Assembly: GCA_018992685.1 (NCBI GenBank)
Contig: JACVGT010000014.1
Location: forward strand, 1 to 64,000
DNA length: 64,000 bases
Origin: Theionarchaea archaeon
Lineage (GTDB): Archaea > Methanobacteriota_B > Thermococci > Methanofastidiosales > SZ-28-30
Direction of reading: 5' to 3'
Every line of letters begins with the position of its first letter. Within the stretch, counting starts at the first letter, position 1. Both the position numbers and the translations under genes were made by a program. The notes beneath the pieces were generated by a model. It was not told the DNA's origin and searched no databases. It saw nothing but the letters and a program-made list of their open reading frames with translations. This document shows positions 45,449 to 46,950 of the stretch, piece by piece.

Positions 45449-45730
45449 GAGAGCTATTCGCATACAGGATTTTAAAACTTTTCCGGAAGAACCGCAGCCA
45501 GCCTATGATTCATCAAAGAATGACTAGTGGGGGTTCTGCCAACCATCACATTCTGGCAGTACAAAGGTATATAGTACTGATTACGAATCTTTACAGATTT
45601 ACAATGCGTTGAGAAAGCTTGGAATACACAGCTTGATAAGAACAGGCTGCTGTGAAACCAACTAGCTAGCCCCACAACACTCGCGAAATCTGCGAAAAAT
45701 CGATGAGTGACAGAAAACTTCTAAAGGTGG

Positions 45731-45746
45731 AACTCACAAATGAGTT
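45731..45746. promoter_or_regulatory. Palindromic operator-like site AACTCA-N4-TGAGTT
   Basis: Perfect 6-bp inverted repeat between a weak TATA-like box (45712-45725) and the RBS of the peptide gene. Confidence 0.45.
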
Positions 45747-45758
45747 AGAGGTGAGAAA

Positions 45759-45842
45759 ATGGACTGCATAAGGAAACTCGGTGGAGGACCAGGTGTCCCC
45801 ACGAAATTGGGTGGAGGACCAGGTGTCCCGACATCCAACTGA
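45759..45842 (+). CDS. 27-aa tandem-repeat peptide MDCIR(KLGGGPGVPT)2SN (not in ORF track)
   Basis: GAGGTGA RBS; two 30-bp repeats differing only synonymously (CTC/TTG, CCC/CCG, ACG/ACA); downstream T-tract. Confidence 0.75.
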   Translation: MDCIRKLGGGPGVPTKLGGGPGVPTSN

Positions 45843-45871
45843 ATAATTCACTCGTTCAAGGTAACTTCCGT

Positions 45872-45931
45872 GATCCATCACAGGATCAGGGTTATTCTTC
45901 TCATATTGGGTAATGGATCTTTTTTCTTTTT
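45872..45931 (+). terminator. Stem plus oligo-T terminator after the peptide gene
   Basis: GATCCAT/ATGGATC pairing followed by TTTTTTCTTTTT. Confidence 0.5.
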
Positions 45932-45981
45932 CGTCCCTTCCCTACTCTTCTGGCCTAGCCGTGCTCATCCTTCAAGAAGCA

Positions 45982-46950
45982 TCATTCCACAAGACTCTGT
46001 TCTTCCTCACCCTCAATGTAGTGAAGGACGCCAATGGCCTGACTAAATTTGTCTATCATGCCGCTGGTTTTCATGAATTGAAGCGTTGCTGAAAGATCAG
46101 TGAAGGTGAGATCTGACTTGATGCTCAGCCACACCAGCAACCCTTCCTCGGTATGGGTACAGACAGTACTGGTAGGAAGGTTTGAGAGGAGTGCAATTAC
46201 TGCGTCAGTGTATCCAGTTCTGAGGAGGAACACAAAGTGAGTGTAGTTGAGATAGCCATCAGGGTAGAACCTCATGAGGACAGTCGTATGGTTACAGACA
46301 GTTTCTAGCCACTGGTAAAACTTGTCAGATGAGATCAAATGTTTTCTCAACGCAGGAGTGACTTTCTTTCTGAAATCATATTCATATTCATAAAACAGTT
46401 TCCATTCTTCTTCATCCCAGGAGGGAGGTTCATGGACAGGCAACCCCACCTTTTCAAGACCATTGGGCTCAAACTCGTGTGCCTGACTCTTCATTCGCTT
46501 GAAAGCTGGAATCCAATCAGTGAGAGGGACCCGGGGAGTAGTGATGTCTCCTCGTACTCCCTGGAACAATAAGTATTCAAATCCTTCAATGTGAGAGGGG
46601 TCATATTTCCCGTCTGAAATGTACATGATGTTCCAGTCTCCTAGGAACAAGCTACAATAGTCGATCTGAGGAATCTCTCTTAGCTGTTCAAATGCATTGT
46701 TTGGATCATCAAACTTGACGAGATGAAAGTATTTATTTAGTCCGGGATAGTATTCAAGTCTCAATTCTGGTCCAAACAGTATCTGAGAATCATACATATG
46801 ATCTAAATAGCTGGAAACTGTATTTCGTGCCATTTTAACATTCTTAGAAATCTCATGAACGTGTACTCTGGGATTTACATATATTTGATTATATATAGCA
46901 TGGTATCTTCTCAATTTCTCCTTTCTTGTAAGTTTGCTCATATAACTCAT
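45982..46950 (-). CDS. Lrp/AsnC-like winged-helix transcriptional regulator, internally duplicated
   Basis: N-terminal HTH (NPRVHVHEISKNVKMARNTVSSYL); second HTH-like/beta-alpha module after WDEEEW. Confidence 0.65.
   Translation of the reverse strand: MSYMSKLTRKEKLRRYHAIYNQIYVNPRVHVHEISKNVKMARNTVSSYLDHMYDSQILFGPELRLEYYPGLNKYFHLVKFDDPNNAFEQLREIPQIDYCSLFLGDWNIMYISDGKYDPSHIEGFEYLLFQGVRGDITTPRVPLTDWIPAFKRMKSQAHEFEPNGLEKVGLPVHEPPSWDEEEWKLFYEYEYDFRKKVTPALRKHLISSDKFYQWLETVCNHTTVLMRFYPDGYLNYTHFVFLLRTGYTDAVIALLSNLPTSTVCTHTEEGLLVWLSIKSDLTFTDLSATLQFMKTSGMIDKFSQAIGVLHYIEGEEEQSLVE

Follow-up and report, generated by a model that had tools for sequence, protein, structure and literature searches.

What does a very short, unannotated reading frame encode when it converges on the gene of a putative regulator, and do the two work together? 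The question arises in a 64,000-nt stretch of the genome of a Theionarchaea archaeon, a member of a group of uncultured sediment archaea (assembly GCA_018992685.1, contig JACVGT010000014.1, positions 1–64,000; this whole stretch is referred to as the window). A short open reading frame (sORF) of 27 codons plus stop is located on the forward strand at 45759–45842 and faces, on the reverse strand, the gene of a tandem Lrp/AsnC-fold protein of 322 amino acids (45982–46950), hereafter the regulator. A sequence-only reading of the locus had described the 27-codon frame, a 30-bp repeat within it and a GAGGTGA ribosome-binding site, and all three are present. Our comparative analysis indicates that the sORF is very probably a genuine protein-coding micro-gene. 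We read it as this locus's representative of a two-gene module that is specific to the lineage and consists of a tandem Lrp/AsnC-fold protein and a convergent peptide gene with a glycine-rich tail (Gly-tail). The further proposal, that the adjacent protein has this peptide, or the C-terminal core of it, as its putative cognate ligand, is a tentative one.

A micropeptide gene under coding selection

The predicted peptide is made up of a 6-residue N-terminal part, two 10-residue units (10 codons each, 45774–45803 and 45804–45833, forward strand) and two final residues. The two units encode the same protein sequence and differ at four nucleotides in three codons, all synonymous. Tandem Repeats Finder recovered the array at 45773–45829 (30-bp unit, 1.9 copies, 92% matches, score 100), the highest score among the short arrays of the window. 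A Shine–Dalgarno sequence (SD), GAGGTGA, is located on the same strand at 45748–45754, 4 nt ahead of the ATG. The sORF region is single-copy within the genome, and no further reading frame among 117 genome-wide candidates combined the M-D-C start with the G-G-P-G motif.

Homologues of the regulator were collected from metagenomes (12 loci, eight of them orthologous with 57–68% identity) from a genome scan (two loci) and from related genomes (G001 and G002), resulting in ten orthologous loci besides the window (G001, G002 and L040–L047), or 11 with it. The window's own genome (G000), its sister species (G001) and G002 belong to one genus. The sequence-only reading had suggested looking for G-G-P-G sORFs beside regulator homologues, and in 10/10 of the other orthologous loci an sORF with an open frame converges on the regulator gene. 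Six loci (G002, L040, L041, L044, L045 and L047) carry a one-copy form of 15 residues, and four (G001, L042, L043 and L046; five including the window) carry a two-copy form of 27–30 residues. The eight distinct ortholog peptides share the pattern M-[DN]-[CS]-x-x-[KEG]-x-x-x-G-P-G-x-P-x. We summarise the micropeptide itself as M-D-C-x-[RK]-K-x-G-G-G-P-G-x-P-x. Furthermore, AGGTGA was detected 4–8 nt ahead of the ATG in ten of the 11 loci, with AGGTGT in the remaining one.

Selection on the peptide sequence, previously proposed from the two repeat units alone, is borne out between species. The window and G001 frames differ by six nucleotide changes, of which five are synonymous and one exchanges one stop codon for another, with no replacements. 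When six substitutions of equal transition/transversion classes were simulated, protein and stop were unaltered in 0.0345% of 200,000 trials (P ~3.4e-4), with the caveat that a CCA-to-CCT change is found in both repeat units, so that the independent events may number five. The other five frames show 2–5 replacements in the same comparison. Across nine orthologs, the G, P, G and P codons of the G-P-G-x-P motif do not vary at positions 1 and 2; three different bases occur at position 3. Averaged over pairs, the orthologs differ by 0.30, 0.29 and 0.49 per site at the first, second and third codon position, where 9/14, 9/14 and 13/14 columns are variable, respectively.

A structured-RNA reading of the region was ruled out, as the sORF transcript is not unusual in its predicted folding (z = +0.45) and a search of 44000–48000 against Rfam, at E values up to 1, returned no match. 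One public set lists the 30-residue ortholog as a protein, and the 27-residue form is annotated by no pipeline. Comparative analysis thus recovers genes of 15 codons that annotation overlooks.

Gly-tail partner genes beside paralogous regulators

The regulator belongs to a family that is expanded in one genus. Matches to the protein numbered 21 in G000, 18 in G001 and 23 in G002. G003, which shares the family but belongs to another genus, and G004, from a different family within the order, have one match each, and the remaining 56 relatives searched have none. Among 1.84 billion representative sequences, an exhaustive search with the family profile found 118 at E values up to 1e-30 and 253 at up to 1e-10. 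No match to the regulator was detected by tblastn in phage and plasmid collections or in PHROGs, and PADLOC gave only a weak winged helix-turn-helix (wHTH) match (SoFic, E = 0.005).

Many of the paralogs, which are 25–36% identical, also converge on a small gene, and the two stop codons usually overlap by 4 nt. At the C-terminus of the products of these partner genes, several glycines in a row precede x-Pro-Gly or a closely similar motif. Several begin, as judged by eye, with a basic and then hydrophobic segment followed by small-x-small, resembling a Sec signal peptide, and others are leaderless peptides of 28–40 residues. All seven partner genes in G000 carry the same strong SD. Searches of these seven peptides against Pfam and NCBIfam gave nothing above noise. 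Conserved frames and similar peptides suggest coding selection on the partner genes of paralogs.

To count as a partner, a convergent frame needed at least 12 residues from an ATG, an end located −10 to +150 nt from that of the long gene, and at least four glycines and one proline in its last 14 residues. G000 contains 2178 open stretches with 200 codons or more; 20 of them have such a partner, and seven of these 20 adjoin members of the regulator family. The rate is therefore 7/~20 for family members vs 13/~2158 for other long reading frames, a contrast that is indicative but no clean test, given that the criterion was chosen after the examples had been seen and that the paralogs are kin rather than independent. 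At family loci outside G000 and not orthologous to the window, a partner was found at seven of 21 testable loci, mostly with a 4-nt overlap with the regulator stop. Related Gly-rich genes thus adjoin about one third of the regulator paralogs, extending the pairing first noticed at the window.

The distribution of partner types was compared with a maximum likelihood tree of 48 rows, rooted at the midpoint. The ten regulators with a window-type sORF are monophyletic (100/100), as are four regulators with a second leaderless peptide type (98/86), and eight regulators with signal-peptide-type partners are spread over at least five lineages, located to either side of this root. This distribution suggests that the pairing goes back to the family ancestor, some partners having been lost or escaping recognition, and that the peptide diversified together with its neighbouring regulator.

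Besides the window sORF, the G000 partner genes are located at C14:53308–53478, C14:67119–67241, C17:63343–63534, C18:14737–14826, C19:6492–6578 and C22:4304–4399. All six have a gap or overlap of −4 to +2 nt, a strong SD and a C-terminus with a glycine run and x-Pro-Gly or similar; two look Sec-secreted and four leaderless. A conserved block was seen upstream of two leaderless partner genes (C14 ~67240–67400 and C22 ~4150–4300) and again downstream of a truncated paralog (C5 ~179900–180100), both as near-identical translated segments and in aligned upstream sequences. The block could represent a common promoter or operator, or else reflect recent duplication. Paralogs also occur as tandem pairs at C7:127129–128968 and C17:62167–64484, the latter with a peptide partner beside only one of the two. 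One paralog (C1:299242–300156) is convergent with an ABC-transporter permease gene, with 42 nt between their 3′ ends; the permease resembles, by eye, an oligopeptide/dipeptide permease.

The two-core form of the peptide

The regulator tree joins the two-copy lineages G000/G001 and L042/L046 as sister groups (99/96). The two cores of a given lineage encode one and the same protein sequence, with differences at three to four synonymous sites. Between lineages two residues differ, and both copies are alike in this respect. As two of the differences between the units are common to G001, the duplication predates the split of G000 and G001. Its earlier history may involve an old duplication with parallel or converted replacements, or two separate origins.

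The sequence-only reading had proposed a precursor of two identical products, and the comparison agrees with this idea. The combination of identical copies, synonymous differences and divergence between lineages fits selection on each copy, with the copies kept alike, as in a putative precursor releasing the same peptide twice. A lysine precedes each core, and cleavage could take place there.

The neighbouring protein has a predicted tandem Lrp/AsnC fold

The neighbour had been described as a duplicated Lrp-like protein, and structure prediction, fold searches and profile matches to Lrp/AsnC proteins agree with that description. The AlphaFold2 model built on an alignment of 80 sequences reached a predicted local distance difference test score (pLDDT) of 93.6 and a predicted template modelling score (pTM) of 0.90, and shows a wHTH, an alpha/beta domain, a helix, a wHTH-like domain and a second alpha/beta domain, in this order. 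It superseded a low-confidence first model based on 19 sequences (pLDDT 69.5; below 45 in four of the five models). On the 80-sequence prediction, the neighbour combines two Lrp units in one chain as a pseudo-dimer and so has two wHTH and two RAM-type domains.

The top VIA-align match of the model was NirDL (4czc_A; Z 12.3, root-mean-square deviation 4.8, 252 residues aligned, covering model residues 14–316). The next rows, with Z up to 8.6, were RAM modules and Lrp/AsnC regulators over residues ~10–142; full Lrp/AsnC chains scored Z 7–8.5 and the stand-alone RAM proteins 2zbc and 2djw Z 8.5–8.6. Foldseek likewise returned NirDL (E = 3e-6) together with Lrp/AsnC chains at template modelling (TM) scores of 0.5–0.58. 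When searched against solved proteins, the family profile matched PH0140 (E = 6.8e-9), LrpA (8e-5) and AsnC (2e-4), and the titles of Protein Data Bank (PDB) entries report bound amino acids in solved Lrp/AsnC relatives.

Among the listed Pfam families, HTH_24 was found in 46/80 family members, an HTH_AsnC-type domain in 13/80 and the RAM-domain model in 0/80; the RAM assignment is by fold. In the window protein itself, HTH_24 is sub-threshold (E = 0.0023), and the fold matches a wHTH over residues ~10–58. NCBIfam and a single-sequence PDB search with the window protein gave no match. In sequence, its N-terminal and C-terminal halves show no significant similarity (hhalign E = 0.005, probability 6.9%). 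Family members are named in source records as ‘hypothetical’, ‘winged helix-turn-helix domain-containing’ or ‘Lrp family’.

The listed reading frame starts at 46950, and the 319-residue orthologs begin at the second ATG, 46941, which is likely the true start. An AT-rich box is located ~20–27 nt upstream of the 46941 ATG. Such a short distance suggests that the regulator mRNA is leaderless.

A putative peptide ligand and the competing explanations

In the working that we propose, the neighbouring Lrp-type protein would bind the peptide, or a short piece cleaved from the C-terminal end of the peptide, and the DNA binding of the protein would change as a result. RAM domains are ligand-binding modules; the fused pair of units would offer one asymmetric site, suited to a peptide end, and the variable x positions of the Gly-x-Pro-Gly tail could set the specificity of each pair. 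Ancestral Sec-secreted partners would act as an extracellular signal that is re-imported, while the leaderless form of 15–27 residues may act inside the cell or exit by another route. As the genes converge and often overlap, the two are likely also coupled in antisense, with transcription of the peptide gene probably running into the regulator gene. Binding, processing at lysine, export, DNA targets and any population-level signalling are all putative parts of this working. The genome holds six SBP_bac_5 genes (Opp/Dpp-type binding proteins), although these are not specific evidence for peptide import. A prediction of the complex between the regulator and the 27-residue peptide (score 0.01 vs a mark of 0.32, with a partner below the advised 30 residues and folded with no alignment) weighs on neither side as to binding.

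A more ambitious version would see a family of signalling peptides made on the ribosome in Theionarchaea, with a glycine run and x-Pro-Gly as active end and specificity-giving x positions, each peptide read by its own tandem Lrp/AsnC receptor, in up to ~20 channels per genome that combine Sec-secreted, leaderless and two-core forms, and possibly with a small RNA (described below) as output gene. We regard this version as speculative.

Several observations weigh against a joint role of the peptide and the regulator. All orthologous loci are syntenic, with genes for a histone, an HD protein and asparaginase_2 followed by the sORF, the regulator, hdrC and hdrB, and the neighbouring proteins are 70–95% identical among loci. 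Because the whole region is conserved in this way, the 10/10 adjacency shows that the sORF has been kept and not that it works with the regulator; the ortholog sORF is linked equally to the divergent asparaginase_2 gene. A functional link consequently rests on the paralog pairs; these were called by a post hoc criterion, under which roughly two thirds of the paralogs lack a partner. In L045, ~1 kb of extra DNA (L045 3458–4462) separates the regulator from the sORF. The window sORF has no signal sequence, and the closest structural match of the regulator, NirDL/AhbAB, is an enzyme, so that the fold is insufficient as proof of a regulator. Finally, public runs contained part of the stretch in 20 rows, two of them from RNA libraries, and no RNA-library contig from the four runs mapped covers the sORF.

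Synteny, the displaced sORF of L045 and the paralogs with no detectable partner are equally what would be expected of a real micropeptide whose function is unrelated to the Lrp-like neighbour, for instance in modulating another enzyme or a membrane complex, and whose gene order is simply inherited. However, inherited order does not account well for the strong enrichment of Gly-tail partners beside paralogs, for the typical 4-nt overlap with the regulator or for a peptide type that tracks the regulator clade. We therefore consider this explanation rather improbable, while giving it appreciable weight.

The partners could also be secreted products with an activity of their own, such as archaeocin-like antimicrobials, surface or matrix peptides, or relatives of ribosomally synthesised and post-translationally modified peptides (RiPPs), in which case the Lrp-like protein would be a dedicated regulator, or a peptide-binding chaperone whose winged-helix domain could bind the peptide. 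Several partners do resemble, by eye, Sec pro-peptides with low-complexity Gly-rich ends, and many divergent copies per genome would suit competition systems. Yet the conserved neighbours of the window pair, asparaginase_2, HD and Hdr genes, include nothing that encodes a modifying enzyme, a transporter or immunity, the seven partner peptides match nothing in Pfam or NCBIfam, and a leaderless form of 15 residues would be an odd bacteriocin, which makes this explanation unlikely.

Slightly less probable still is a device acting in cis, in which expression of the Gly/Pro-rich sORF sets how far polymerase runs antisense into the regulator gene, by interference or through a 3′ antisense RNA, and the peptide is conserved since its Gly and Pro codons pace the ribosome. 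Such a device would be compatible with a peptide ligand. The orientation is convergent at all loci and many paralog pairs overlap by 4 nt, the invariant positions are Gly and Pro, and most orthologs lack a run of five or more T within 150 nt past the stop, so read-through is likely. In addition, an RNA-library contig covering 45849–46000 bridges the 3′ flank of the sORF and the 3′ end of the regulator gene, although these contigs are strandless and DNA may be present in RNA libraries; a second contig, covering 46022–46239, derives from a relative (31 differences). Pacing alone, however, would need neither the conserved M-D-C and basic residues nor the long secretion-type N-termini of paralog partners, and the RNA structure of the sORF is unremarkable (z = +0.45).

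A reading frame that is open by chance, because it spans a tandemly repeated stretch of DNA or a structured RNA, would agree with the shortness of the sORF, the missing annotation of its 27-residue form and the gap in RNA-library coverage over it, but is highly improbable for a frame kept at 10/10 loci whose core codons vary only at silent sites while the five other frames accumulate replacements, with no unusual fold (z +0.45), no Rfam match and a 30-residue ortholog that has been called a protein.

Cell–cell communication in archaea is poorly known according to two articles (PMC12240190, PMC13464002). The archaeal signals known so far are small molecules, and the first of these articles lists a carboxylated acyl-homoserine lactone (AHL) and diketopiperazines. 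In the literature on archaeal quorum sensing, peptide communication, RRNPP systems and Theionarchaea, the texts searched contained no gene-encoded peptide signal in archaea, no peptide ligand for an Lrp-type protein and no gene pairs of this kind. On the more ambitious version above, Archaea would have in this module their first communication system based on gene-encoded peptides, with a receptor fold unrelated to the tetratricopeptide repeat (TPR) receptors of bacteria. A peptide ligand would also add to the kinds of ligand bound by the Lrp/AsnC fold, which is very common. The repeated pairing of peptide and putative sensor offers an entry point in vitro for which no culture of the organism is needed.

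Local signals around the sORF

A 15-nt promoter-like motif on the forward strand (45712–45726) is located 47 nt upstream of the sORF ATG. Each of the 11 orthologous loci carries it, with at most three changes, at 47–51 nt from the ATG, and it is unique in the window (one match vs 0.04 expected). As AT-rich, TATA-like boxes are seen by eye at a matching distance before the partner genes of paralogs, we interpret the motif as a putative promoter with a B recognition element (BRE) and TATA box, which would place the transcription start ~10 nt before the ATG. Outside this motif and the SD, the spacer around the sORF is poorly conserved across orthologs. Between the window and the sister species, its DNA identity is 85%.

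Two further signals from the sequence-only reading fared less well. The palindrome AACTCA-N4-TGAGTT is present at 45731–45746, but is broken in G001 and absent from more distant orthologs, hence it is probably not a functional operator. A stem and T-tract are also present 3′ of the sORF stop (hairpin 45871–45888, T-tract 45920–45931, forward strand) and could form a terminator. However, a run of five or more T within 150 nt past the stop occurs in only three of the 11 loci. The hairpin is not significant by itself, as a terminator scan found two sites vs 1.2 expected from shuffles. By eye, its pairing is preserved in G001 through a change on both sides of the stem.

A near-invariant element upstream of the regulator

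The region upstream of the regulator gene (46951–47145, 195 nt) shows 83–96% DNA identity in every orthologous locus, where the regulator protein shows 57–93% identity, and a core of ~110 nt is essentially invariant. The near-invariant non-coding element at 46983–47120 includes an 8-bp inverted repeat with a 3-nt spacer (46989–47007), a perfect 11–12-bp hairpin of which only the loop varies (47069–47095), and two to five copies of a 7-nt motif followed by a T run (47115–47120). An RNA-library contig with a depth of 137 begins next to adapter sequence at 46995 and continues past 47100. Rfam contains no family for the element at E <1, no second copy was found in the genome, and among ten relatives searched the element occurs only in the genus. 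Its base pairs are invariant, hence no covariation signal is possible.

The element is a candidate small RNA of ~125 nt, with the forward strand favoured, or else a conserved control region. As a small RNA with putative strand and ends, it would be transcribed divergently from the regulator, from a shared AT-rich box (46958–46966), and it might be the target of the regulator.

Comparison with known systems

Multi-copy peptide precursors are known from yeast alpha-factor and the cyanobactins. The two-core form resembles them in its two identical cores, each after a basic residue, and in the identity of the copies at the protein level, but has no useful leader, no nearby processing enzyme and a total of only 27–30 residues. 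RiPP precursors adjoin their modifying enzymes, whereas the neighbours here are asparaginase_2, HD, histone and HdrCB genes in all orthologous loci. Likewise, a leader peptide or attenuator acts on a downstream gene of the same strand, in contrast to the convergent regulator of this locus.

The putative receptor shares with Lrp/AsnC proteins (PH0140, 7fby/9w4w; LrpA, 1i1g; AsnC, 2cg4) an N-terminal wHTH and a RAM-type alpha/beta domain. Those proteins are single units of ~150 residues that form dimers or octamers and bind free amino acids according to their entry titles, whereas here two units share one chain, the presumed ligand is a gene-encoded peptide, and ~20 copies per genome occur with partner peptide genes. 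The siroheme decarboxylase NirDL/AhbA-AhbB (4ch7, 4czc, 4czd) also consists of two Lrp/AsnC-like units, in a single chain or as a heterodimer. However, its sequence identity is 8–10%, it is absent from the PDB sequence matches of the profile, and the present family has no heme or heme d1 biosynthesis context and ~20 paralogs per genome.

The closest functional parallel is found in the RRNPP(A) systems of Firmicutes and their phages, namely Rap-Phr, PlcR-PapR, NprR-NprX, AimR-AimP, Rgg-SHP and PrgX-PrgQ. The conserved or active part of RRNPP peptides is at the C-terminus, and PrgX/PrgQ and some Rgg/SHP pairs are transcribed convergently or overlap. As in those systems, a small peptide gene is located beside the gene of a helix-turn-helix protein (10/10 orthologous loci and about one third of paralogs), many divergent pairs occur per genome, and Sec-type and leaderless forms coexist. 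PMC7425212 gives more than 25 RRNPP-type pairs for some Paenibacillus, and PMC12700828 places Sec-type and leaderless propeptides in one family, RRNPPA, discussing in-cell action or an alternative exit for the leaderless peptides. On the other hand, the receptors of RRNPP(A) systems are TPR proteins and not of the Lrp/AsnC fold, the host here is an archaeon, and the motif of a glycine run before x-Pro-Gly differs from known pheromones. The analogy with RRNPP systems drawn by the sequence-only reading therefore stands as a likeness of function and not as family membership: on its predicted receptor fold, the module is outside the RRNPP(A) family.

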